The notes under the pieces were generated by a model. The model saw nothing but the letters and a program-made list of their open reading frames with translations, made no database searches and was not told where the DNA came from. A DNA stretch of 64,000 nucleotides, taken from NCBI GenBank assembly GCA_001938485.1, contig MQRK01176000.1, positions 11,350 to 75,349 of the forward strand, in the 5' to 3' direction. This document shows positions 1 through 63,031 of this stretch, piece after piece; the stretch's first letter is position 1, and each line of letters starts with the position of its first letter. Position numbers and translations under genes: made by a program. The stretch comes from Girardia tigrina. Taxonomy: Eukaryota.

Positions 1-116
1 GTATGAGACACTACACAATTACTCAATATTATGACATCATTGCCTAACCATTGACCTACTTTTTGCATTGTGCACAATCCGTTTTCTGAAATCCGCATTT
101 CATACTTGTACACCTA
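1..116 (-). mobile_element. Terminal part (TIR) of a mariner element, same family as 32292..33556
   Basis: 1..116 is nearly identical to 33440..33556 and ends in catttcatacttgtacacctaa followed by TA. Confidence 0.85.
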
Positions 117-269
117 ATAACTGAATTCTTTCACACGAGGGAGTAATATACAATAAGATATGAACGAATGCAGTAATGTAGTGGTCAATGTTTAATGTTG
201 TTTATTGTGCTTTTTGAAAATAGTGAAATATTTCCGATCGATGCAACAAACTCACATTGGACGTGTTAA

Positions 270-800
270 TTACGGTGTTACTAACATTGTTATAGTTGCG
301 ACTGATCTTAACGATTTACTCTCTTCAATTTCCATTGCTATTTCGACCTGTAATTCATCTAAAAGTGCTGCATTTTCCAGAATATCCACTTTATTCGCCA
401 ATCTCGTGACTTCAGCGGCGTATTCATCAATCGTGTTAAAATCAGACGATTGAATATTCTTTATTCTACGACACGCATCTTGACAAGTCATTCCATAAGC
501 CGCATCCATTACTCGAAACTCTTTCCAACGAAATCCTATGTTGCGTTTCAGACTAATTCATATATATGTTCAACTCACATCAACTAAATACAAACGGAAA
601 TAATAACGATATGTCTTTTACTAGCTGCATCTCCGCGGTCATCACAAATCGTTTCTTCCATAATTCACGCAAGGCCTCACCACTGAATTTCTCCACACAC
701 TCTAGAATTATTTTACAGCTCGTCATTGTCCGGATAGCTTGTAACATTTCGTAAATTAACAATAAAGAACGACGCACAACAAGGTTTATTTACTATCACA
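270..800 (-). pseudogene. Degenerate retrotransposon gag-like fragment
   Basis: Broken ORFs (ILECVEKFSGE..WKKRF; TIDEYAAEVTRLANK resembling gag 'V.EY..EL..LA'), preceded by a short TG..CA segment at ~740-800. Confidence 0.35.
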
Positions 801-1219
801 GTGGATCACACGTTTTTCGGATTATTGAATTATTAAAACAAATTATACTTCTTTTTTCATTTAATTATTTTTGTTAATAATTATCATGACCCTACAACTC
901 ATTATTCAATTGATTTTGTTCTTTATTCCGTTTACAGAGAGGATTATATTTATCTTTAATGTTTGAGATGGTACACCTATTACCCATGTATATTTGCAAA
1001 CAAGATGAGATCTCAAACCGAGAGGTATGAAAGGGAATTATTACTAAACATTTGACGAATTTTATAAAGTTGAGAAATAACATTTTTTTAAGTTTATCAT
1101 ATCAAGAATCACGTTTTTCAAAATTGATTATTTAAAATGCTGAATTAGGAGTTGATAAAATATTTAAGAAATATTTAACGAGTCAAATAATGGTAATATT
1201 AAAAATTTGAATTATGATA

Positions 1220-2538
1220 AGGTGTGTCCACTAAAAAAGTGCACAAGTTTTCAAACCATCATAACTTTTTAATTAGACCTTCGAATTGACGGAAATCTGA
1301 ACAAAGACTAGATCATAATAACAAAATAACTATTTTATTATATCAAACTATTAAGGCCATAAGAGTTAGCAAGCATTATTCTTTGTCTAAAATTTGCAAA
1401 TAATGTCCTAAAATATAAATTGTTAAACTGCTTTGCTTTAGTTTTGATTCTGCGAATCAANTGGTCTTCAGAATCGGCAGTCCAACCCTTTTCATACACC
1501 TTCTCCTTTAAATGAGGCCAAAACTTTTCAATTGGGCGTATTTGGGGAGCACAAGGTGGATTCGAATCTTTTTTGACAAATGTAATTTTGTTGTCCTCTA
1601 AGAACTTCAGACTTGCTGTGGCGTAGTGACAAGAAGCAAGATCTGGCCAGAAGATGAAGTGACCAGCTGGGTATTTCTCATTCAGATAAGGAAGCAAACG
1701 CTTAGTTAAGCACTCGGAGATATAAATATCCGAATTAGATGCTACAGATTTCCATTTTCTGATGTACAGGTTTGAAATGCCTCGTCTGGAAACAGTTGCC
1801 CAAACCAAAACTTTTACTGTGAATTTCTCTCGAAATTTAAGGCGAATATTATCAGGTACATCACCGAACTTCTTTTGGTCCACATAATAACCCGATGCCA
1901 TTGCTTTGGTGAGTGTAAAATACGACTCTTCCTCAAGTACAAATTCGGTTTGGTCTTTTCCACAACAATTTTAGCGAGATTTTGCAACCTGGCTTTCTAG
2001 CGAATAATCTGTGTCGGAGTAACCTTTGGGGCTTCTTTCCTCTTTAGAAACACTATGTTATTAGTCTTGAGCATCTTATGCACATAAGACTTTGAAACAT
2101 TTATTTCTCTACCTAACTTTCTCACACTTTGTCCAACAGTCAAAGTTGCACGCTGCAGAAGTCTCTTCCTTTTGTTTGACGTCATTTTAACAGGTTTCCT
2201 TTCACTTCCTACTTTTCTTTCAATGCTGCCGGTCTTCTCATAGCGTTGTATTATTGCATATATACCTCTTCTGGAAAAATGAATGCCAGTAAACTTTGTC
2301 ACAGTCTCACTTTTACTGTGCGTTTTTGAAAAAATTGATTATATCTTCATGTCGTTTTGAAATCATTATAATTATCTCTAAAATAAAACATATTAAACCA
2401 AAAATTTTAAATACCTGCTTTACTATTTCTAACCTATTAAAACAAATATTTAAATTCCAAATTTACGAAATTAAATAATATTACATTAAAAAGTTATGAT
2501 GGTTTTAAAACTTGTGCACTTTTTTAGTCGATACACCT
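1220..2538 (-). mobile_element. IS630-Tc1-mariner element, DD37E family, full length with disrupted transposase
   Basis: ~50-bp TIRs (aggtgtgtccactaaaaaagtgcacaagtttt / aaaacttgtgcacttttttagtcgatacacct) flanked by TA. ORFs 1997..2302 (HTH) and 1338..1901 carry WPD-x37-E (WPDLASCH...IRPIE). Confidence 0.9.
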
Positions 2539-2949
2539 TATAATGACATGACAATTCACGTTTATCATACTAAGGCTGCATAGTGTGACTTATAACGAAC
2601 CTGAATTGAGGTTTATTTTACCAGTTCTGCTCAATTCTCTGCTGCTGCGTTTGGTCACTTGTAATAATAGAAAATTATGGCGATTCAATATAATGTTCTG
2701 TGATAGTGACAAAAATTTGTAACTTTAGATTTTTTTTTAATGAATTATCTTTTGAGTAACTTTTCAGTTATTCCAATAAGTCTAGATCATTTAAATTTAG
2801 TATTATTTTCCAAATTTCAGTGTACATTTCTAAATCAGTTGCATAAAGAAATTTTAGGTTCTTGAATTATTTTAAAAATTATATATTTACTGACTTCTTT
2901 TAAAACTTTTTAATTATTTTTTTCGATTGTTTATTGAGCATTATTTCAG

Positions 2950-3374
2950 GTCTTCCGGGTTGCCGATTTTGTAGTCTTTTTCCTGAAATCGATTCTCAAT
3001 TTGGTAGTTTAGGAAACTTTTTTGACATTGATTTAGCCAATTATCCCGGTGGGTGGTCTGTTGATCCACCGTTTGTTAATAGTGTATTAGAGGATGCTTC
3101 AAAAAAAATATTAGAGGCTCTTGAAGCGGGTATAAAATCTCACTTTTTCTGTACATATCCTTTTTGGACAGATTGCAAGGGTTGGAAATTATTAAATGAA
3201 TCGCCATTTCTCGCAAAAGTTTATCATCGAAAAAGAGGTTGTCTTCTTCAAGATGCATACGGCAATATTATTCGTCCTCCCACCGGATATAGTCTATTTT
3301 GTCTAAGTTACACTTCAAATATCAATTTCGAATACTTAGATAAAATTGTTGACAATGTGAGTTTCTTAGAATAA
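2950..3374 (+). CDS. Terminal exon of a divergent PCIF1/CAPAM-like N6-adenosine methyltransferase
   Basis: FCSLFPEIDSQFGSLGNFFD...WSVDPPF...FFCTYPFW aligns with PCIF1 YCSAFPDTDGYFGSRG...FEANPPF...FIVFIPEW. Acceptor tttcag ends at 2949, the frame is open to TAA, and AATAAA overlaps the stop. Confidence 0.75.
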
Positions 3375-3817
3375 ATTTCATAAATATATATTATGCTTAT
3401 ATTTGGTCATAATTTTTTTAAATTTATGCTACTTTTAGCCTTTTGAAAATATAATTTTATTTGATGATCTATATATGATATCAAATCTTGGTTATTATCG
3501 TCATTATTATTACAATTTGTATATTAACTACATATTCTTTAACTAGTCCTCAAATGACGTGTTTCAAAATATTAATTGTGCATTCAGAAATTTAAATTCT
3601 CAATTTTACAAGATTATCATCACTGTACGAGTCACAAAATTTACTCTTAATAGTGCCAAACTTAAAAAAATAAAGAATTTAGTCATATTAACTGTTATAC
3701 CTTCCCCACTAAGACTTTTATCACTAGCCTGTCACCGAATTCTTTTCGATTGTATTATTACACATCAGTCAATGATATCAGTTATTAACATTATCAGTCC
3801 TGATAATTTCTTTATTA

Positions 3818-4560
3818 CGGTGACCAGAAAAAACACCACAGTGAAAAACACCATAATGGAAAAACATCACAAGTCTTGTTCTTTTTTTAAATTTTCGAAT
3901 TATTCTTCATTTAAAAAAAATTAGAAAAAAAATATTGATACCTACAACAGAATGTTTAATATTATGAAGACACTGCTTCCTACTTTTTCATCAAGAAAGA
4001 TTCTCGTTGATTTTGAGAAAGCGTGTATCTCAGCATCACTAATTGCCGTTCCGAGTACCGAAGTAAATGTATGCTATTTTCATCTTTGTCAGAGCCTCGT
4101 GAGAAAAATAAGAACTGTTGGGTTAAAAATTGAGTTTGAGACTGACATTGAAGTCAGGTTAAAATTAAAGTCGTTAGCTGCCTTGGCATTTGTGCCTCAA
4201 GATTATGTCAGAGAATTGTTTAGTATACTTGCAGCAACTTTTCCTGATGAAGAAAGTTATAATGGTATGGTAACTTACTTCTTCTCTACATATATTGAGG
4301 GTGCTACGGGAAGAAATCTTCAATTTCCTATCAGGATTTGGAACCAATATGAAGCTGCAACTGAAGAATCACCAAAGACAACAAACTGTTGTGAAGGTTT
4401 TCACAATTCACTTAATGCTGTTTTACACTGCAGCAATCCAAGTATCTGGTCTCTCTTTTCTGGGCATCAGATTGACATTACTAACAAGAAACTGATATTG
4501 ATAAAAGCTAGGGATGGTCAACCAGAAGTAAAGAAGAGAAAGTATGAGCTTTTAATAATT
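3818..4560 (+). mobile_element. MULE (Mutator-like) transposase remnant, C-terminal half
   Basis: ORF 3952..4650 has DFEKA, CYFHLCQ, LAFVP and TTNCCEGFHN. Repeated aaaaacaccac subterminal motifs at ~3820-3875. Confidence 0.85.
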
Positions 4561-5903
4561 AAAAACATATCTTTGCTTTTACTCTTTTCAAATTTTATTC
4601 ATTTTGTAATAAGGGAATCTGCCGTCTCTATGGTGTGTCAGGTAAAATAGTTGACTGAAAAAGGTGTATCAGTAATTTATTGGGTTCGGCAAATCATTTC
4701 GTTTTTTTGTATTAAAGTAAAAGACAAATTTTTATGACGAATAAATATTTTATTGAAATACATATTGACCATTGTGTTTCAATACCTTCTTCCATCTTCC
4801 TGGCAGTGACATGATTCCACGTTCATAAAATATTTATTCTTTGCTGCTGAAAAACTTTTCCAGGTGATTTATAACATCTTCATTTGATCCAAAAGTGTTA
4901 CCATCTAAATAATTTTTAGAGACCGGAACAAATGATAATCAGATGGTGCGAGGTCTGGAGAATATGGTTGGTGAGGTATGATGTTCATCCAAGCTGTAAA
5001 AGCTTTTGGCGAGTTACCAAACTTGTGTGAGGTCTGGCATTATCTTGGTGAAACACTACACCTTTTCTATTTATCAATTCTGGCCTTTTGTGTTTACGGG
5101 ACTCATTTAATTTGTCCAGCTGATAACAGTATACATCCGTATTGATCGTAGTTTTGTCCGGAAGAAGCTCATAAAATACGATTCCTTTGAAATCCCACAA
5201 AGCAGATAGCATCACTTTTTTTGATGAATGTCAGCTTTCGAAGTGCTTTGAGCAGGTTAATCTTTTTTACTCCAAGATCTCTTGCGTATCACATTATTGT
5301 AGACTACCCATTTCGCATCTCTAGTGACGATGCGCTTCCAAAATGGATCATTTTCTTGATGTTTGAGAAGTATATCGCAGATGTCTAAACGACAGCATAA
5401 ATTTCGTTCCGTAAGATTATGAGGAATCCATGTGTCGAGTTTTGATGTGAAACCTAGACACTTCAAATGATCATGGACGGTCGGATTAGATGAATGTAAT
5501 GTCTGGGCAATTTCGCGAGTTGTTATTTGCCGGGTTGAATCAATTAATGCCTTTATTATGTCTTAATCGGCCTCAATGGGCCTTCCGGAACGTGAAGAAT
5601 CTTCAACATCAAAATTTCCGGATCTAAATTTTTTAAACCAGTTTTGCCATACGCGTTCTGTCAACACATCTTCTCCATACACTTCGCATAATTTTCTTCT
5701 TGTTTGTACAGCATCTTTACCTTTTCGGAAGTAAAAAAGTAATACATGCCGTAAATGCTGATTCTTGCTGTCCATCTTTGATAGGTCAAAAATCAAATAT
5801 AAATGTTTTTAATTATTCCAAAATTTTCCAAATCTAACTTTGATTACCAACTGCTAAAATAAATAATATAGTCAATGATTATTAATATAAAAAATACATT
5901 TAA

Positions 5904-6583
5904 AACAAGTATTAATATTATTGATAAAAAAATTTTTTTATATAAACAACCACGTTTTTCAAGCATTACCATTGCACTAAAAAGAGGAAAATAATTTTTT
6001 TTCTAGACATGTGCGAAATTTTATACCTAACCAAAAACGTGGGGCGGATTTCTAAATTACTGCTATTAGTAACTGCCATTTCCTCTTTACTGCTTTTTAG
6101 TAACAATCTATCATTTCTATGCCTCACGTTTTTGGTTAGGTATAAAATTTCGCACATGTCTAGAAAAAAAATTATTTTCCTCTTTTTAGTGCATTGNNNN
6201 NNNNNNNNNNNNNNNNNNNNNNNNNNNNNNNNNNNNNNNNNNNNNNNTTTAGTTATCATTTAGGAATTCAAATCTTTCGATTGATTTCGAATAACAGAAA
6301 TGATAATAAAACCAAAATAACAAAGTTTTATTTTAATAAAAGCAAGTTTTCTTTCAAAATAATTTTTTTGTACGTATTAATTAATATTATTGATTTTTTT
6401 CATAAAGTTAAATTATAGCATATGCGGTTTATGTAGAGCCGTAAATGTTTTAAAATATTGTATTGTCATCGGAACCAAGCCTGTATAAAAAATTCAGCTC
6501 AATTGGATGACTGAAAGTGGTCGAAAAATCAATCGCAAGATTTGTTCCAGACAAGAAAGCAAGCTAATAAAAACGTGGTAAAA
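5904..6583 (-). mobile_element. Helentron-associated (DINE-1/HINE-like) non-autonomous element inserted in the mariner
   Basis: Subterminal inverted repeat ccacgtttt (~5950) / aaaacgtgg (~6570), minus-strand cttgtt end, core aaattcagctcaattggatg, inserted in an A/T run. Confidence 0.55.
5970..6196. mobile_element. Foldback MITE with ~75-bp near-perfect inverted arms
   Basis: tgcactaaaaagaggaaaataatttttttctagacatgtgcgaaattttatacctaaccaaaaacgtg and its reverse complement ending at 6196; the right end abuts an N gap. Confidence 0.75.
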
Positions 6584-8211
6584 AAACGAAAAGACTTTCC
6601 GAACAACAATAGTTTGATATCTTACCAAAGCTATTGATTTTCGTTTATCGTCCTCATAATTGAACTATGGTCTCTAAAAATCTGTTTCTTTGTTATTTTT
6701 TAAATACCTTTATTATTAACACATTTGGTCATTACGTTGTGAGATTAGTCACACAATTCCTATTGGCTAATCTAAGTTATTGTGCTTTATTTTAACATTA
6801 TTATTTTCAGTTTGACAAAACCAACACAGAAGATTTTTATTTATTAAATTTTCTGTAAAAATAATTTCAAACTGTACATCTTTAATTTTGGAAAAGGTTA
6901 TTGAAAATTAAAGTTTAATTATAACTTTATTGTGGGATGAAACATATTTATTTAAACGGAGGATTACTTTGCAAATTAATTTGGTGGCATTTTTTCTACT
7001 TTTCAACTTTTTTTATTAATTATCAATCTGTTAGACTTTTAAATGCTTTTTAATTATGTTTTAAAGTAAAATAGACAACCGATTTATCTAGTCTACGGAA
7101 ATAGTGTTCTTACTGAATTTTCGGACTTGCCTTATCAAAAGGTAACATCGCACTTTGGTATTAACTCAAATAGTTTTCTGAAAGGTTAAAAATACTCAGT
7201 TTCCTGTTTAGATGTTAGGAATGCATGCTTGAGTGATGTAGCACAGTTATCAATGAGTGCATACTTCTGCGAATAACTCAGTTGCAACATGATATGTTCC
7301 AAATAATAACATCTCCCAATAGAAAGTTATCATTGCAACTTGTAACTTTTAATGCACTGTAATATCCTGCGAAGATTTTAATCTTAGTAGCGGAATCTGC
7401 TCTCTTTGTGTTTACGTTTAAGAGAGTGGTGTATTCCGTTGCTTCAGCTGACATGAGACTGCTCCACTGCATAATTGTTTGTCAACGTACTTTGTTAAAG
7501 TATTAAATGCTTTCGATTTTTTTTAAAATGATAATTACATAACTTTAATTTAAAATTTTTAAAAATTAAAAATAATATTTCATGTTACTTAAATAAACAA
7601 TTTCGTAAAACATCACCATTTAATAAATATAAAAAGCGAATACCTGGGCTATTTTGTGTCGCTATCTTTTATAGAATCACCATGTTTTTATACATTTTTA
7701 TCATTATCAAAATTTGAATTGTCTCTAGAACAGCTCTTCACAAGACTTTTATCACTGAGATTAACATAAATGTGCTGTTAATATTTGATTTACACACTTT
7801 TTAGACACTTTCCTCAAATTTGTTATTTTTTAGTGGGTTAAAATGAAAGTTTATGTAAACAGCTAACACTAATATACTCTTTAGGTAAGAATTAGTTAAG
7901 TCATTCTTTAAGGTTAATATATGATTAAAGATAACAAGTAGTAAAATTTGTATTAACTCTAAAATGGTACTACGTTATTTTTAGGAGTAATTTCACTTGA
8001 AACAGTTAACTATGCGTTCCTAAATATGTTGAACGTTATATGTTTTTTGTACCGTAGCCATTGGGCCATGGGTGCTCTCAAATAGGCACAAAAATTATGG
8101 CTTGGGTTTGCATATGTTTGAGTGTCTCAGTAAGCAAGTAACCTGGTAGCGACTATCTCCTCTCCAGGTATGGATGGTCTCTAGCTCCAAGGAGCTCATC
8201 CGCCCTTTGGC

Positions 8212-8980
8212 CAGTGGTGGATTTAGCTATACGACCGCTCCCAACGACCCTGTTGGATTCTAAATGGCGCCCCCAAGATTACTTTTATAAATGTGTAGTT
8301 TTGTGTACAAAAATTAGCTGCATTATGATTAAGTTTCATCCTTAACACTGACACAAGTTCTGTGATGCAGAAGAACTAAATGGATTGGTTTGGTATGTAT
8401 TATTAACGTGTACACTGAAACATATTGCTGCTGATGCTTTGCTATTTGTAATATTACCATGTCGTGTTGTTAGACATAGATGATGCAGTAGTTTAGCAGG
8501 CATAATATTTAGATGAATGACGGTGAATGCAGAGACTTCGAGCAAAGAACCCAAAACGAGAGAGGCCCGACCGTAGAGGAGTCAGTCGGAGCCTTACAGT
8601 AAGCAATTTTGAATTTAACCGTAATCGTAAAAGTAGTTTATTTTCTTGTGTCAGTGTTAAGGATGAAACTTAATCATAATGCAGCTAATTCTTGTACACA
8701 AACTACATATTTATAAAAGTCATCTTGGGGGCGCCATTTAGAATCTTATTATTAAAAGTCGGTAATAATGACGGGTGAACAAAACTTCATTATTTTTAAT
8801 AGTTATTTATTTTTCGGTGCTGCCTACCGCTGGAACAAGACAGCGGGGAGCGTACAAATCGTGTATATTATAGTATTTACTCAATATTAAAATTAGTATG
8901 GCTAATACTACCTTTATCCTTTTTGGCGCCCCCTGAAAGTTTTCTCGCCCCCCACGCACCAAAATCTAAATCCGCCACTG
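8212..8980. mobile_element. Non-autonomous hAT element
   Basis: TIRs cagtggtggatttag / ctaaatccgccactg, 8-bp TSD cctttggc/cctttgac, internal ~100-bp inverted repeat (8256..8357 vs 8645..8746). Confidence 0.85.
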
Positions 8981-9018
8981 CCTTTGACAGATTTAGTTTT
9001 TCATCCTGACAGATGTCA

Positions 9019-10050
9019 ATTAGGGATATGACTTCGGAATAACATTTTAACGGTATACCAGCAAGAAAGGGCATTTTACTAGATAATCACAAAATTATAT
9101 ACAATTGTATTCAATTATAAAAAAATGTCACCCACCAAGTAGTCTAAAGATTTGTATTCTACCACATCATTACGGTCATAGTCAACTACAAATGCGCCTA
9201 TTCATCAAGCATCATTAGATAACAGGAAACGTAAACAAAGTTTTCTACTGAATGACAGAGAGGAGCAATGTCTTGTAAAACTCTTATTGACCTCTCAGCA
9301 CACAAATAACTACGGTGAGTTGTTATAGGGTAAGGAGTTTGACCAGTGTTTATCCAGGCAGCATAAGGCCTTTGGATAAGGAAGAACTGCATCAATTCCT
9401 ACAAGAAGGTTGTACTGGTCTGGACAGTACAATTGATCACTGAACCAAGCACCGAAAATAAATCTGCATACTTCTTCTGCATGTTCTCCCTCAGAAGTCA
9501 ACAATATGTAGGCTAACAAGGTAAATATTGCGTGTGAGTTCCAACGGGCATTACTGATGCCGGGCAGTGCACCAAAGTTAATGTTAGACATAATGTTGAA
9601 ATTTTGATAATGTTTAACCCTTAACGGGGCAGTTGTTAACATTTTGTTAACAACTGACGTTTAGAGTGCTGTAACTCTACTTTGAAAACTCTGAATCGAA
9701 AACCGTTTAAGGACGATGCCACTTTTTACCTTCGCACGGGCAACTTTGCTGATGGCACTAACTTAATCGCACTACATGTTGACTGCTGCGAACATTGTTT
9801 ACGCGCCTGAAAGGGAAACATTTGTGCCTCATAATCTTCATCATCATCATCCCCATCACCAATTTATAAAATAAAAGGTCAATTGGTTTCAATGGTAAAA
9901 TTTGAAAATTCTAAAAATGGTTTGGTGGGTGAACGTTTTTCAAGTAACTAGCATAATTTCGGTGTACTTATTTCTATTTCATAAAAGTTCACCCACTACT
10001 GCTATGCCAAATCATTTTTTCGCAATTTTTAAAAAAGTCATATGCTTAAT
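9019..10050 (-). mobile_element. Internally deleted hAT-related (hATm-like) DNA transposon
   Basis: Imperfect TIRs ttagggatatgactt / aagtcatatgcttaa. Transposase remnant PGISNARWNSHAIF...CAERSIRVLQD resembles the ARW..AIY / AER.VK family. Confidence 0.6.
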
Positions 10051-10569
10051 GTCCACACATACTCTTCACCTATGTTGCTCTGTGTGAGGGAGGCAGTTTA
10101 GTCGCCAACTATTCGGCCATGGGACAGATATTACAGGTTTACATAATACCTGTTGCAGACAGCTTGCCTGAACAGACCTGTGGTCAATTGTTGTAGAGTA
10201 CTAATAAAGTTGTATTGAATAACACATATATCTATAAGTCCACACACAGAGAGAACTCTGGGGGATTAAATACAACTTGGAGAGTTGGAATCACAATCCA
10301 GATTATGTGAACACGCTTTTTATAAATACTCAGATATGATAATAGTTGATATAGTAACAGTGGAATGCCAACTGTTTTTATAAGTAAGGAATTATTACAT
10401 ATAAATGAATATATAAACATGAGATATGGGTATTTTACAGCGTGCAATGTAGAAATAATAGAGATAATAGAAAAAGAAGGACTATAATATGAATAATTTT
10501 GTATTATATATAATTTTGGCACGCTTTTTATAAATAAACTATATTATAGTACGCTATAATCAGATTATT

Positions 10570-12440
10570 CATGGTCGAATAATTCGTCCAGTGCTTCTCA
10601 GTCAGCATCTGAGTCGATCTCACTTTCTGGTTTAGGATGTATGTCATCCAGGAGTGAGATCTCGGCAGAGTTTTCGGGCACAACCAGGGATTCTACCAGC
10701 TCGATGGGCTTCAAGTGTGAAATGTTGAGCTTGATGCTATCTCGATGGAATTGTCATTGTGCATTTGTCCAGCGAATATTTGGCAAAACACAATGGCGTG
10801 CGATGTGTAAAATTGTGTGACTGTGAAACCCTATGGTTCGTAGTGTGTCAGTGCTAATGCGTGGTCAGGTGCCCGGGGTTCTCACTGCTATTGTCAGGAC
10901 CTTTACTGTCCATTTTTGCATCACCCCTTTTATGTTATTTGCCAAATCCTTGTTATAGAATCTGTTGGCCTCGTCACTACGGTCGATGCATGTATCAGTT
11001 TGGTAGGGACATTCCACATCAACTAGAAGAATGGTAGAATTTCTAGGGAATTTCAAGACGATATCTGGTCGAAGCTTACTACCAGTAAACTGACAATCAG
11101 AATCCACTGTCACTTCAGCATCAGTGTGCATTCTGATTTGTGAGGCAAGGAAATAAACAATGGAGTTATGCCGATAGGTCCAAAAGATTTTAGAATTTTC
11201 GCAACAGACAAGGACATGTGATAGATTTTCTTGTTCAAGCTCACAACAACGACAGATTTCTTTAAACTTATCCTCTGGTATCGCAAGCACTGGAAGTGTA
11301 ACAGTGTTGCATTGATGGACAAGATACCATTCAGAGATTGTCAATTCACCCGAGTATATGACAGATTTGTTGATTCGGGGCTCAGAGATTGACTTGGAGA
11401 AGCGGCCAGCACTTCTTTGTCGAACAGTATGTCCAAGCATTTGGACTTCTCTCTTTATTGTTGAAAGAGATGATGTACGACGTGGAGTTGAAGCTCGATA
11501 TTCCTTGGTTGATATACAAAAAGACTTCACCATCAATCAATTTAAATTTAGTATTGAACATTTGTCTGGACGAAAGTTGAGACCGAGAGTGATTGCAATT
11601 TGTTGGGCCGCAAATGCAAGTTCAGTGGCTGAGGTTTTATCAATCGCCAGAATAATCAGGTCATCAGCATACACAAGACAACAAATTCTATGATTACCGA
11701 TCTTAATGTCACCACATAGAATTTGGTCCAGAAGAAGCAGCATAGGGTTGATGCTAATGTTAAAGAGGATCATGGACAATGGAAAACCTTGCCTTACTCC
11801 AATATTAATTGCAATGTCCTCTGTCTTTAATGGTCCACAGATTATTCGATGGTGGCAATCGTTATACAACTGTTTGATCAAGTTGCACGAAGGAATAGAA
11901 AGACCAATGTGAATAGAAATAATGTCGATAGAAATCGTGCCAAATGCGTCCTCAATGTCCATGAATAGAGCATGGATAGGTGTTTTAACCAAGTGGTTTT
12001 CATATTTATCCAGTATTGCTCGGATGAGGAGATTGTGCTCAGTGAACCGTCATGAGGGCAAAGACTCTTTGAGAAGGTGAATCAAGTTATTTTCTATACA
12101 CCAGTGATGAAGAACAGAAGCAAGGACAGATGTGAATAGTTTATATTGGCAGTCTAAGAGTGCAAGAGGTCTCCATGATGATACATTGTGGTAGTTGCTC
12201 TGTTTCATAGGTTTTGGGATTAGAAAGGTATCAAACTTTTTCCAATACTCAGTGATTACTCCTTCCGCAATAATTCGGTTAAAATGTTTAAGGTGGAGCG
12301 ACAGGTCCGGATCACAGTATATGATGTCATTTATATACAATATTAGATCGGCCAGGTGCACAATTCTGTTTTAAAACCTTGAAAGTTGCCAACGGCCGTT
12401 GCTTGCTTGATTTCTGAGATCGGACGAAATCCGGCTTACC
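10570..12440 (-). mobile_element. RLE-type non-LTR retrotransposon (NeSL/R4/R2-like), 5'-truncated and degenerate
   Basis: RT motifs WRPLALL, MDIEDAFGTI, GVRQG.PLS, YADD; CCHC CRCC..HVLVCC; RHNSIV; PDIV..DVECP endonuclease. Confidence 0.85.
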
Positions 12441-13290
12441 CAAATGCGGTCATTGTATACAACCAAAATTTATTATTTTCAATTATCATTATTATTAAGT
12501 TGACTTGCATTTTTTAACTTGTACCACAATAGCCCCGAAAACAGGAAGGGTTTAGATAAGACATGAAAAAGCAAAGACATGTCGGGAAATTAATTCGCTA
12601 TAATACGAATTTCTTGGAAGATATATGAAGCTCTGTTTGAGATTATCTTGATAGAATATAATAAAAGAGAAAATAATTTTCTATTTATCTTTGCTCGATA
12701 TGTAATTATTTTACAAATGTTTATTTTCTATATCCTATTTATATTTACTTTCAAATATATCAACTGATGAATTGTTGTATATCTTTTTACATTTTGATCA
12801 TGTTTGTTTTGCGATTTTTTAATATGAAAAATTTATTTCAGACAGAATATATTAAATAAAATTGACTTTGAAGAGAGATCTGAGTTTTGGTTTTGGAAGT
12901 TAGCAATTATTATAAAAATGCTTTTTCTTCTACTCAAAGTAATTTTGAATGATTTTGTTTAAAATTTTTAAAATATATTTGTATAGATTTATAATATTTG
13001 AAAAAAGAGCCAAAGATTTAAATATATCAAACTATTAAACTTATGTTTCTTGATGGTTCATCCACAGAAACCGATCTGTGTTGAATTACGTTTGCTTCTG
13101 AATTTGTGTTTTTCTTTTTGTACAAACATTTCAACAACTTGGCTATTTTTTTGATAAATCATTATATTTTTGAAGATTTGAAATATTTATATTTTCACGA
13201 ATATTTTCTTTGAAAAAACTTTAACTAAATGATAACAAAAATTAGTGTCGGATCTTCACAGATAACGTAATAATTATCATATGGTACTAC

Positions 13291-14408
13291 GGGTACAGGT
13301 CTTTTTGGCACCGAGTCATTTTTGCGCCGTTTATTTTGGCACTCTATTTTGGCGCAATTTTTATGGCTCCATATTTGGTGACGTATTTTTTAGCTGATAA
13401 TTTTAGTGATGTAACTTAGAGTGTTGAATTTTTTATATTTTATTTTTAAATAAGTTTAGATTAATAATAAATAATTTGAAATATATTTTTGTTTATGTCA
13501 ACCAAATTTATAATGGCTATAAAAATTTTTTTAATTGTTTATATATCTTATTTAAAAAAAAAGTTTAGACTAATAATTAATAATTTTTGTTTATGGTAAC
13601 TAAATTTGACATATTTTTAAGAATGTAACAACACACTCATTATGATTAAAGTTGTGATTTTGAATTTGGAGCTATTTTTGCAATGGAAGAATGTTTTCCA
13701 GGTGTTATAATTCAGGGTTGCTTTTTTCATTTAGCTCATAATGTACAGAAACAAGTAAAACGGATTGAATTGGAGAGTGAATATAATTCAAACCCTGAAT
13801 TTGCTTTGAAAGTTAAAATGGTGGTTGCATTATGTTTTGTACCTATTAATCATTTAAATAACTACATTAGTGCTCTGTCTGAAGATTTACCACAACAACT
13901 AAGTTCCTTGCTTTATTGGTTTGAAGATAATTATGTTGGGCGGTCAATGAGAAAAGGAAATGGCAGAAGAACTCTGCTTTTTCCACCTCCTATGTTGAAC
14001 CAATACGAAAGAACAATCGTAGAAATTGGTAGTACAAATAATTATGCAGAAGTAGCACACAGAAAAATATATGCAGAAATTGGTGTTTGTCATCCAATTT
14101 TATGGAAATTTATTGACTGTTTAAGAAAAATCCAAAAGAGCAGAGATTTATATTACGAACAATTAGTTTCTGGCAATGCCTCAAGGCATAAACTTCTTAA
14201 ATATTTAAAAGCAGATGAAAGAATTTTAAATATTGTTAAACGATTTGCTCAAACAGAACCATTGGATTACTTACGCGGTTTAGCACACATTTATGAAATG
14301 CATTAAGTTAATAAATTTATATATTCTTTACATTCTTTTTTTTTACTTTTTAAAATTATAATTTTTATTTTAAAAAATTCAGAACCAAAATATATTATAT
14401 ATATATAC

Positions 14409-25926: not shown

Positions 25927-27632
25927 GGTTATACCCGAAAACAGCGAATTACATAACAGCGAATCCCAAAACAGCAAATGAAATTTTTTATTTGAAAATG
26001 AGATTTTTGTCATTTAAATTGGAGAATATTTATATTAATAAGATATTTTTATGATATAATTTTTTTAATATATTTTATTAATAATATAATTTAAAGCTTG
26101 TTTTAATTTTCTATTTTTTCATAAGATTATTTTTAAGTTTTGCTTGTGAAAAAACTAAATGGAAATATTAACAACTCAAAAAGGTTCTGAAGCATGCAAT
26201 TATGGAGGATATTCCTACCGTGTAGATACAGTCACCTCAATTAGAAAAAATTGGCGATGTCGTACCATCGGTTGCAAAGGAAGACTTTGGTCAGATATTG
26301 ATAACTGTCATCCGATTGAAAAACAATGGCATTCCCATCCACCAGCACCAGAAATCGGTATCGTAAAGTCTACTATTTATAAGATGAAGCAACAGGCAAA
26401 AATAGAAACGCGCAGTATTCCGATTATACATTCTGATGCGGCAGCTGAAATTTCTGGTAATACTTCAGCTTCCGCTATATTTCCAGCTTTCAAATCTATA
26501 AACAACGTGTTGTATCGAGCACATCACGAGAAATTACCGGTTTTGTCTCAAAGTTTAAATGACATCAAAATACCTGATCAATTGACACAAACTATTTCAG
26601 ACCAATTATTCCTATTGTTTATCAATGAGGACAAATCAATTATATTATTTGGAACAATAAGTAATTTACAAATGTTATCCAGCAATAACCATTGGTTCAT
26701 GGACGGTACATTTCGGGTAGCACCTCCCTTTTATAAACAAATATTTACAATCCATGCTCTTCTCCAAAGTAAAGTACTTCCATTAATTTATTGTATTCTG
26801 ATAGATAAAAAAGGTGAAACATACACATCAGTTTTTCGTAAGATTCTGGATCATAATTTGATACTTTCACCAAATTTAATCACATTGGATTTCGAGAAAG
26901 GTTTAATAGTTGCGTTACAACAAGAGTTCCCGCAAAGTCGTCTACGTGGTTGTTATTTTCATTTCTGCCAAGCGGTATTTAGACAAGTTCAGAAATTAGG
27001 TTTTAGTGTCGATTATGGTAATAATGAAGAACTTAGAACGAAAATACGTATGCTTATGGCTTTGGCGTTTGTTCCTGAACAAATTGTTCAACAAATTTTC
27101 GACAATCTGAGGGACGAGGCACCGGTAAATATTAGACCTCAATTCCAGTACTTCCACCAGCAATGGTTTCAAAATATTAAAAAAGAAATGCGGAATATGT
27201 ATGGCATCAGACGGCGGACTAACAATGATGTTGAGGGGTGGCACAACCGCTTCAATAATTTAGTTGCTAAGCATCACCCCAATATTTATGATTTAATATC
27301 ATGTATAAGAAAGGAACAAGGATTTACAGAAACATTGATGTCACAAATTAATGCTGGGCAAGTTATTAACAAAAAAATAAAAAAGTATAATTCAATAAGT
27401 GAACGTATTTCAAAATTGCAACAGCGTTTTGATGATGGTGAAATCGGTGTGCAGGAGTTTATTCGTGGAATTTCTTTCAGTTTAAGCACACCAATTGCAT
27501 TGTGACAAAGTATTTAAAGTTGGAATTTCCTTAAAATAAAATTTTATATCTAATTGACTTTTTTTATACTTGGATAGTACATCGCTGTTTTGTAATTCGC
27601 GATTTTGTAATTCGCTGTTATGAGGATATGCC
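25927..27632 (+). mobile_element. Complete MULE element inserted in the LINE
   Basis: 8-bp TSD gcgagaag, GG..CC termini, repeated aacagcgaat / attcgctgtt subterminal motifs. Confidence 0.9.
26159..27505 (+). CDS. FLYWCH + MULE DDE transposase, 448 aa, open frame
   Basis: WRC..GCKG..HSHP (FLYWCH), MDGTF, LDFEKG, GCYFHFCQ, RTNNDVEGWH. Confidence 0.92.
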   Translation: MEILTTQKGSEACNYGGYSYRVDTVTSIRKNWRCRTIGCKGRLWSDIDNCHPIEKQWHSHPPAPEIGIVKSTIYKMKQQAKIETRSIPIIHSDAAAEISGNTSASAIFPAFKSINNVLYRAHHEKLPVLSQSLNDIKIPDQLTQTISDQLFLLFINEDKSIILFGTISNLQMLSSNNHWFMDGTFRVAPPFYKQIFTIHALLQSKVLPLIYCILIDKKGETYTSVFRKILDHNLILSPNLITLDFEKGLIVALQQEFPQSRLRGCYFHFCQAVFRQVQKLGFSVDYGNNEELRTKIRMLMALAFVPEQIVQQIFDNLRDEAPVNIRPQFQYFHQQWFQNIKKEMRNMYGIRRRTNNDVEGWHNRFNNLVAKHHPNIYDLISCIRKEQGFTETLMSQINAGQVINKKIKKYNSISERISKLQQRFDDGEIGVQEFIRGISFSLSTPIAL

Positions 27633-61564: not shown

Positions 61565-63031
61565 TCAACTCATCACGTAACTCGGTATGGATAATATTTT
61601 TGAACTGGGATTTTGGGATGTATTGTGATCTAGGGGGGCCGAAGAATCACTGGGAGAGTGATTTGAATCTGAATTTGATAAGTTTCTCAATAATTTCCAA
61701 CTATCATTTTCTGATAAGCAGGATTTTTGTTTTCTTAGGCAAGTTTCCGAGGAGGAAATAATAAAATTTGGTGATGATATCGAAACGTTTGAATGATGAT
61801 TTGGAGATAGGGCGGCTAATGATCGAAAGGAATTCAGATCATGTCTTTTATCATGATGAGTTGAAGTGTTGGGATTCTTCTTGTAAGGATTCACTGCTGG
61901 TAAATGACTTTTGTCAAAGTGTCGACCGAGATCCCATTTCCATTTATAAGTGAGACCACAAATTATACATTGATGTGGACGTTCTTTGGAATGAACCATA
62001 ATATGTTTCTGAAGTTCAGTTGGCCATTTGGCGAAATATTCACAATGAGGGCACTGATATCCGGTGGTTTCGATTTCCCCTTGCTTTACGACAGCTTCTA
62101 ATTCCTGAAATACGAATTATTAATAAATAATTTAAGTGTATAATAATCTTGATTACTTGCATACAAATCTCTTCTACTGCGTGTGATTTCCACGATTTTG
62201 CTAACTCTAGCTCTTTTATCAAACATAATTCGTGTTCATTTAAAAAATGAGTATTCAAATCTATTAAGGATGCAAAGGATGTTGAGCATTGAAGACAACT
62301 TGTGACAGGTTGCTTTCCTCCTCCACTGGTTCTTCTCGATGACTTGGATCCGGTTATACTATTAAGCATTCTTGATGTCTTATTTTTATAGTTGTTTATT
62401 GAGGTTTTCGAAAGAGTTGGTGATATAATATTACTCGGTGGTGAGGAATTGTTTCCGGTTCTTTCATACATCGAATGAAGAACATTAAGATGATGATGAT
62501 TTTGTAATAAAGGCGGAAGAAATGCAGGATATCCATTATGATTATTTGGAAAATTTTCGAATGGGTTTTGAAATGGAAATCTTCGAGTACCTTCAACTTT
62601 GGTGAACATTTGCATAGCTAAATCAAAATGTAAAGGGGTTTTTAATTTCTTGGTCGATAAATCTACGGGTGTTTCTTGGTCTTTTTTCTCATCATTTGAT
62701 CGTTGATTTAAAATAGTTCGAGCTACATAAAGGTTGAGATTCATTAAATTCGCCAATGAAGAATAAAAATTTGAAAACCCATTTCTTCTGGCTAGTAAAT
62801 GGAACGCCAGATCTATTGGTGGTAGAACTGTTGGAAAGGAAAGAGACCAATTTGAAGATTGTTGTAAGAATTTCTAGAACAAACAAAAAACAATCAAATA
62901 GTAAAAATTACCTTTCGTTTGAAGTATGAAAAAACAGAAAACAATGAAATAAAAGTTACTTTATTCTGTTGAAACGAATAGCTTTTAATTTTCGGGTCGC
63001 TAGCTTCAAACTTGAAAGGACTGTATTGCAT
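61565..63031 (-). CDS. zfp-1: Flatworm ZFP-1-family C2H2 zinc-finger transcription factor; exons 63031..62960, 62873..62157 and 62104..61565 (~442 aa)
   Basis: Isolated finger CLQC..H..H, ~40-aa linker, then tandem fingers CPHCEYFAKWPTELQKHIMVH-SKERPH-QCIICGLTYKWKWDLGRHFDKSH. A 52-nt phase-0 GT-AG intron (62156..62105) joins the two ORFs in frame. PVDLS motif present. The zfp-1 versus zfp-1-1 subgroup and the first coding exon are less certain. Confidence 0.8.

Follow-up and report, generated by a model that had tools for sequence, protein, structure and literature searches.

The 64,000-nt window of Girardia tigrina DNA analysed here carries, at 2950..3356 (+), an exon of a gene related to the methyltransferase PCIF1/CAPAM. 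With moderate confidence, we read it as exon 3 of a spliced and intact gene whose WW-less product belongs to a family other than animal PCIF1, likely derived from a giant virus, and predicted to act as a SAM-dependent N6-adenine methyltransferase at the 5' ends of mRNA. We discuss the structure of the gene, the selection acting on it, its predicted fold, its paralogues, and its viral-type relatives, and we weigh the explanations that compete for its origin and its activity.

Background

To our knowledge, no m6Am writer other than PCIF1 has been described, and PCIF1 is regarded as a single, conserved enzyme. In the accessible part of PMC4738411, PCIF1 is traced to the last eukaryotic ancestor, and methyltransferase domains of DIRS1 retrotransposons are placed in the PCIF1 clade as likely inactive members. 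CAPAM clamps the cap between its two domains, and its WW domain takes no part in catalysis; the same source, in the text available, gives D/N-P-P-F/W/Y as the catalytic consensus, names DPPF as the motif used by ZCCHC4, and describes the helical domain of CAPAM as blocking internal substrates (PMC8287941). The cap contacts of human CAPAM are R235, E558, and W588, according to the accessible portion of PMC13290413. One PCIF1 copy is reported in Kaumoebavirus (KLCC10_0094), and the available text of that paper states that no homologue occurs in other viruses (PMC7909422).

In the open literature on PCIF1 in planarians, Macrostomum, and giant viruses, NCLDV, or Nucleocytoviricota (including the accessible parts of PMC7824862, PMC9546926, and PMC10544176), we found no description of a flatworm PCIF1 family; subscription journals lie outside this scope, and the supplements of PMC4738411 could list such proteins. 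The main text of PMC9627665 mentions neither PCIF nor CAPAM. The flatworm family, its expansion, and its origin thus appear to be new; the PCIF1-domain call itself is already in databases.

Gene structure and splicing

The gene has four exons, whose joined frame encodes 361 amino acids (aa) without a stop, in register with the paralogues described below; all three introns are GT-AG. Exons 1 and 2 lie left of the window on contig C176000 (+). Exon 1, placed by the exact match of a loose contig end, has its ATG at 3162 and ends at 3173; exon 2, at 8235-8883, encodes the helical core and the E-G-F-A-S-P-I-N motif, and its frame ends in YEGFASPINSRFL ahead of a GT donor that makes a GT..AG joint with exon 3. 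An upstream exon of the form E.F[AS]SP.N had been expected left of position 1, and this is where it was found. Intron 2 measures 5,415 nt in the assembly, including a 2 kb gap, and its 3' part occupies 1..2949 (+), filled with Tc1-like and retrotransposon debris. Exon 3 (407 nt) encodes the C-terminal half of the methyltransferase domain. Its acceptor, ATTATTTCAG followed by G, lies at 2949/2950; the frame is open from 2952, and exon 3 is entered in phase 1, frame 1, read from 2950, being closed. A GTGAGT donor at 3357 closes the exon in phase 0. Intron 3 (3357..12841, +, 9,485 nt, GTGAGT ... TTTCAG) contains MULE, mariner, and reverse-transcriptase fragments, so that decayed transposons do surround the exon on both sides, as had been noticed. 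Exon 4 (12842..13343, +) supplies the last codons, TEYIK and a stop (12842-12859), followed by the 3' untranslated region; its end at 13343 is an estimate from approximately 500 nt of contig past exon 3, not a mapped end.

This structure revises the first-pass annotation, which described an intact 141-codon exon with an acceptor and a polyA signal. The acceptor, the open frame, and the motifs stand; the exon stops at 3356, and both the stop at 3372-3374 and the putative polyA signal fall inside intron 3. The shortened C-terminus noted at the time is in part a missed exon, namely exon 4.

The evidence for splicing consists of assembled contigs of public runs, mostly tagged "RNA, a guess", which inform on joints and not on level or transcript ends; joints were examined in 7 of the 19 listed runs. 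The joint of exon 2 to exon 3 (L012 3384->8800, GT..AG) is present in three of four runs of a first set, and in a second set, contigs of all four runs start at 2950, and their loose ends correspond to the end of exon 2. Overall, six of seven different runs contain this junction; the seventh, X7, covers part of exon 3 and has no joint. Contigs of four runs (X15, X16, X8, and X6) break at 3356 and go on, at 12842, into sequence that is unique within the window, which rules out exon 3 as a terminal exon. Read-through of the donor at 3357 was seen in one contig only (160 nt, depth 2.3). Upstream, run contigs extend into exon 1 with its ATG at contig position 3162. Exons 2 and 3 have one exact genome match each, so the joints are unlikely to derive from a processed DNA copy; the gene is single copy. 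The proposal of an intron-bearing, spliced gene is therefore borne out by GT-AG joints in these contigs. In run X16, one contig spans intron 1 sequence upstream of exon 2 (L012:2500-2735), pointing to an alternative 5' end or a retained intron that would use the second ATG.

Exon 3 is under purifying selection. Compared with run X8, 11 synonymous and 7 non-synonymous changes were counted among the 18 of 23 differences listed (pN/pS 0.17, p 0.0002). The signal is weak against runs X6/X16 (4 synonymous and 5 non-synonymous, 9 of 10 differences listed, p 0.10), and run X13 differs by 2 synonymous and 1 non-synonymous change. The codons of DPPF and the following V-N are unchanged in all four runs.

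Elsewhere in the window, a MULE transposase frame of 448 codons is open at 26159-27505 (+), and a C2H2 zinc-finger gene, the closest host gene observed, is represented by two frames at 61565-62873 (-).

Domain architecture, motifs, and predicted fold

Exon 3 alone matches Pfam PF12237 with an E-value of 7.5e-16 (58.6 bits, curated cut-off 31.1). This family is named PCIF1_WW and is the methyltransferase region, the WW domain proper being PF00397. By sequence, its match to CAPAM structures is weak (E 0.002). The 361-aa protein combines the PCIF1/CAPAM helical core with the methyltransferase domain and contains FASPIN, DPPF, and FCSLFPEIDSQFGSLG. This last, cofactor-side motif (2967..3014, +) aligns to QYCSAFPDTDGYFGSRG of CAPAM. 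Motif IV (DPPF at 3063-3074, matching human N553-F556) is followed by V-N, the whole spanning 3063..3080 (+), with N at the position of the cap contact E558. The Trp that matches the cap contact W588 is conserved (3165..3167, +). Whether the recovered upstream exons would reveal a WW domain had been asked; none was detected in a scan of exon 2, and the 361-aa protein starts 24 residues ahead of the first helix.

An AlphaFold2 model of the Macrostomum relative P0004 (pLDDT 90.1) superimposes on human CAPAM residues 196-668 with Z 27.4 and rmsd 3.3 over 324 residues, the next family reaching Z 9.7. It also matches proteins of Pithovirus, CroV, BsV, TetV-1, Hokovirus, and salmon gill poxvirus. 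For a model of exon 2 of the gene itself, zebrafish CAPAM is the top match among 48,161 chains (Z 10.0, rmsd 5.2, 198 residues), a modest match taken alone. The fold of the 361-aa protein is thus predicted from the models of P0004 and of its own exon 2. In the BFVD, an uncharacterised salmon gill poxvirus protein, A0A0H4XWM9, matches the compact PCIF1 fold (E 2e-8).

The cap contacts R235, E558, and W588 correspond to H, N, and W in this copy. R235 is kept in 13 of the 14 family rows that cover the site, this copy alone having lost it. E558N is common to 9 of 19 family rows, and viral relatives themselves show wide variation at this position (E in 124 of 206 metagenome rows). The first-pass annotation took the D of DPPF, in place of N, for a viral or protist trait. 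It is not a viral signature: N occupies the position in 36 of 38 IMG/VR rows, 187 of 206 metagenome rows, and 16 of 19 flatworm-family rows, and DPPF is private to this copy. Other paralogues have NTCF, SPPF, or GPPF at motif IV. Compact WW-less PCIF1 proteins occur in protists too, and we therefore do not use the compact helical domain as a viral mark.

A flatworm family beside canonical PCIF1

The same genome contains a separate, multi-exon canonical PCIF1 with NPPF, as expected if the gene studied here is a second, atypical PCIF1-like gene. Protein P0240 (687 aa), 97% identical to an exon of the canonical gene, carries the WW domain and sits with animal PCIF1 in the tree. In the canonical gene, FASP...YCSAF lies within one exon and the breaks fall elsewhere; intron 2 is therefore not common to the two genes.

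A search of the genome with exon 3 gave 35 matches among 47 candidates. In the 33 loci fetched, none of the 32 alignments spanning the intron 2 site is interrupted there, and merging identical contigs by eye left 22 loci, six pairs of which, at 86-95% nucleotide identity, may be alleles. These counts suggest about 16-22 further paralogues that lack intron 2 of this gene. Six of their frames are free of stops over nearly full length and one more is open to the end of its contig, the rest having stops, shifts, or partial length; dN/dS is 0.17-0.50 in the non-saturated paralogue pairs, 18 out of 66. Inspection of open reading frames (ORFs) and blastn revealed neither viral genes nor a common element in the flanks. 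A mobile element shared by the paralogues was rejected as a candidate, as likeness among the 33 loci did not extend past the coding region except between nearly identical duplicate contigs.

Several paralogues have features of their own. Three intact ones (L013:4100-5332, L016:5165-6337, and L017:4613-5746) have a changed motif IV, NTCF twice and SPPF once, and are possibly inactive or redirected. Two paralogues at L018 (1-726 and 3926-4867) face each other approximately 3.2 kb apart, a sign of local duplication. In those at L014:4008-5519 and L015:4405-6036, the N-terminal region is interrupted by long inserts of low complexity or of repeat sequence. GC3 is 0.54-0.69 in 9 of 11 paralogue frames (L013-L026), 0.56 in exon 2 (L012:2736-3384), 0.22 in exon 3 (2950-3356), and 0.16-0.34 in three canonical PCIF1 exons.

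Relatives in Macrostomum, viruses, and metagenomes

The best matches of a paralogue (84 of 1769 candidates) were the unnamed P0003, proteins of Macrostomum lignano, P0005 (JGI), and then unnamed metagenome proteins; P0003 and P0005 are counted as family members by likeness. P0116, P0187, and P0200 are Macrostomum proteins, and databases already annotate the Macrostomum proteins as PCIF1-domain proteins. P0116 (PAA56815.1) is 1,283 aa long and contains three near-identical tandem copies of the domain, either real or an artefact of assembly or annotation. A library search returned 3986 matches, of which the best 150 are listed. Among the matches listed, the best outside flatworms are of viral type, not animal; neither another named animal nor a parasitic flatworm appears in these lists (84 of 1769; best 150 of 3986), a weak negative. 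Mitochondrial-type stretches of the genome, read by eye, have AAA at conserved Asn and ATA at Ile positions, in keeping with NCBI table 9; together with Macrostomum as the closest named relative, this supports a flatworm host.

A profile search of viral contigs recovered 42 loci, many on giant-virus MAG contigs; P0004 alone, used against viral contigs, gave no match. Neighbours of the viral loci (33 ORFs at 5 loci) include genes for RNA polymerase, topoisomerase II, and DNA ligase. Among 28 viral-type relatives, picked partly for length, fusions were found to FtsJ (6), cap guanine-N2 methyltransferase (2, P0088 and P0239), poly(A) polymerase (2), XRN (1), and RNA polymerase subunits (2); the partners of relatives thus include a cap 2'-O methyltransferase. 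P0130 is fused to FtsJ, and P0144, from the sister group, to an RNA polymerase N subunit. The closest proteins outside the flatworms are the unnamed P0144, P0014, P0154, and P0221; a search for their source contigs found none, the best hits reaching 34-39% identity. Atlas neighbours of P0014 are 70-88% viral; of the three best Atlas clusters for P0004, one is 70% eukaryotic, chiefly from green algae (Chlorophyta). One family member (L095:7755-8732) sits amid bacterial-type genes, including fumarase and a TonB receptor, on a 297 kb metagenome contig.

Phylogeny and origin of the family

Three trees were built: FastTree with 295 of 297 rows, IQ-TREE with 65 chosen rows and 185 columns, and a quick tree with 47 rows and 311 columns, which left out 17 rows for run time or partial length and one without the anchor motif. 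All three recover a single clade of the flatworm and Macrostomum family (support 98; 100/99; 100, respectively), and the best tree of each puts it amid viral and metagenome sequences and keeps cellular PCIF1 separate. In the IQ-TREE analysis, a branch with 100/98 support splits the family from all 17 cellular PCIF1 proteins, with 10 IMG/VR and 18 metagenome rows on the family side and five viral rows on the cellular side of this unrooted tree. The terminal branch of this copy is long (0.91). A one-to-one orthology with Macrostomum P0004 is supported at 93/83 on 185 columns and unresolved on 311; for this reason we do not claim it.

An approximately unbiased (AU) test rejects a clade of the family with animal PCIF1 (p 0.0008), and the family therefore appears not to descend from it. 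A clade with all cellular PCIF1 gives p 0.076 on 185 columns and p 0.097 on the 311 columns of the quick tree. The spacer from FASP to FCS offers a second character. It is 10 residues in 17 of 19 family rows (2 not scored) and 5 in 119 of 120 cellular rows (1 not scored); it is at least 10 in 12 of 38 IMG/VR rows (4 have 5, 22 not scored) and in 152 of 206 metagenome rows (18 shorter, 36 not scored). The 5-residue insertion is thus absent from all 119 scored cellular rows, oomycete, ichthyosporean, and green-algal proteins included, a set biased to canonical spacers since it was fetched with the canonical exon as query.

Trees, AU test, and spacer agree with the earlier suggestion that the gene is closer to giant-virus-type proteins than to animal PCIF1. 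The accompanying claim of horizontal acquisition holds in part: descent from animal PCIF1 is rejected, and the choice between a virus and an unsampled cellular donor is left to the p values of 0.076 and 0.097. A giant-virus origin is likely and not proven, because a position as sister to all cellular PCIF1 is unrejected (p 0.08-0.10). The presence of the family in Macrostomum makes the acquisition old. Taken together, the outcomes that had been named beforehand as contrary (a place as the sole metazoan orthologue; a lack of splicing or of an upstream exon; a lack of purifying selection) did not come up.

A search of the genome for an NCLDV capsid gave no match, but the control likewise matched nowhere, so the result shows little. 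Weak matches to the A32 packaging ATPase family at 18 places, such as C71555:1074-1646, probably reflect Maverick/Polinton elements.

Predicted function and alternative explanations

We envisage a single acquisition from a nucleocytoplasmic large DNA virus that predates the split of Macrostomum and this lineage, followed by intron gain in this copy and by repeated duplication that would have yielded copies without these introns. The CAPAM fold, the cap contacts, and the viral-type fusion partners lead us to infer a 5'-end adenine methyltransferase that works without RNA polymerase II recruitment. As in CAPAM, the cap would be clamped between the methyltransferase domain and a shortened helical domain, with W588 kept, and DPPF would position the N6 of adenine for methyl transfer from SAM, D serving this role in METTL3 and ZCCHC4. 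Without a WW domain, the enzyme may work independently of polymerase II recruitment, as viral enzymes must. With R235 lost and E558N, this copy may bind caps poorly; the two changes likely alter or loosen cap recognition relative to m7G, hinting at an altered cap preference. The product is thus a predicted 5'-end adenine methyltransferase, probably with a changed cap preference.

A bolder version, which we consider improbable, holds that a domesticated giant-virus enzyme, expanded in flatworms, forms a second, polymerase-independent system of 5'-end marking that reads caps other than m7G. Trans-splicing occurs in flatworms, and the spliced leaders carry a trimethylguanosine cap, which would be an example of such a substrate. 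The fusions of P0088 and P0239 to cap guanine-N2 methyltransferase suggest that the lineage may already work on hypermethylated caps.

This copy could instead be a weak or redirected paralogue that binds RNA or methylates internal RNA adenines, small RNA, or DNA, which we judge somewhat unlikely. R235H, N553D, and E558N fall at sites conserved in relatives, the terminal branch is long, other paralogues carry NTCF, SPPF, or GPPF, and the accessible text of PMC4738411 considers DIRS1 members of the clade likely inactive. Yet the cofactor-side motifs and W588 are intact, position 558 varies in viral relatives as well, and PMC8287941, in the part available, includes DPPF in the catalytic consensus as the motif of ZCCHC4 and has the CAPAM helical domain block internal substrates. 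Rather unlikely, too, is a donor other than a virus for the same gene with the same likely activity: a cellular microbe (an alga or protist taken as food or kept as a symbiont) or an ancient eukaryotic paralogue lost in other animals. Such a donor accords with the AU values for a cellular-sister clade, the compact PCIF1 of protists, the mostly chlorophyte Atlas cluster, and the lack of names for the nearest relatives. It is opposed by the best trees of three analyses, which nest the family among viral-type rows, by the insertion missing from every scored cellular row, by the fusions of P0144 and P0130, which resemble those of viral-type proteins, by the viral Atlas neighbours of P0014, and by the lack of another named animal among the matches listed.

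Two further readings concern the host genome itself. Both PCIF1 genes lie in one genome and long branches can attract, so one might suspect a rapidly evolving duplicate, or a retrocopy, of the canonical PCIF1 in the same animal; the AU test (p 0.0008), the insertion pattern, the unshared intron 2, and the viral-type character of the best listed matches outside flatworms make it very improbable. Contamination, a pseudogene, or a recent endogenous virus fragment is scarcely credible. Most paralogues are intronless at the tested site, rich in GC3, and often broken, but this gene has three GT-AG introns filled with host transposons, is spliced in runs labelled as several organisms, and is under purifying selection, and the paralogues have flanks free of viral genes or a common element and dN/dS of 0.17-0.50 in the pairs noted above. 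We thus retain the reading of a spliced family member of likely giant-virus descent, predicted to act at mRNA 5' ends.

Comparison with known systems

Vertebrate PCIF1/CAPAM (PDB 6IRV-6IS0, PF12237) has the same arrangement of a helical and a Rossmann methyltransferase domain (P0004, Z 27.4) and the same F[AS]SP.N, FCS.F.D.D..FGS.G, xPPF, and W588 motifs. The flatworm family differs in lacking the WW domain, in the 5-residue insertion, in its multiple copies beside a canonical gene, and in a helical domain approximately 115 residues shorter (median distance from RW to RY 124 versus 240); this copy also has DPPF, R235H, and E558N.

The PCIF1-like proteins of NCLDV (Pithovirus, Cafeteria roenbergensis virus, Bodo saltans virus, Tetraselmis virus 1, Hokovirus, and, by fold, salmon gill poxvirus) are likewise compact and WW-less, of similar length, with a QW motif, a longer FASP-FCS spacer in most scored rows, and a place in the same phylogenetic neighbourhood. 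The flatworm family is, in contrast, nuclear, spliced, and expanded in the host, without fusions to RNA-processing domains; the activity of the viral proteins is itself only predicted. The DIRS1 domains, as presented in the accessible part of PMC4738411, are also multi-copy PCIF1-clade domains in animal genomes; they are embedded in polyproteins and described as inactive, whereas the flatworm genes are stand-alone ORFs with a helical domain, mostly NPPF, and no common flanking element.

Implications

The family would constitute a second PCIF1-type family, separate by descent, extending from Macrostomum to this lineage and grown to many copies. If true, this would add to the rare instances in which an animal has taken over an RNA-modifying enzyme of giant-virus origin, and it would indicate that giant viruses met early flatworms. 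These animals are tractable by RNAi, which makes it testable what a giant-virus-type PCIF1 methylates, and whether the 5' ends of their mRNAs bear a mark that canonical PCIF1 does not write.
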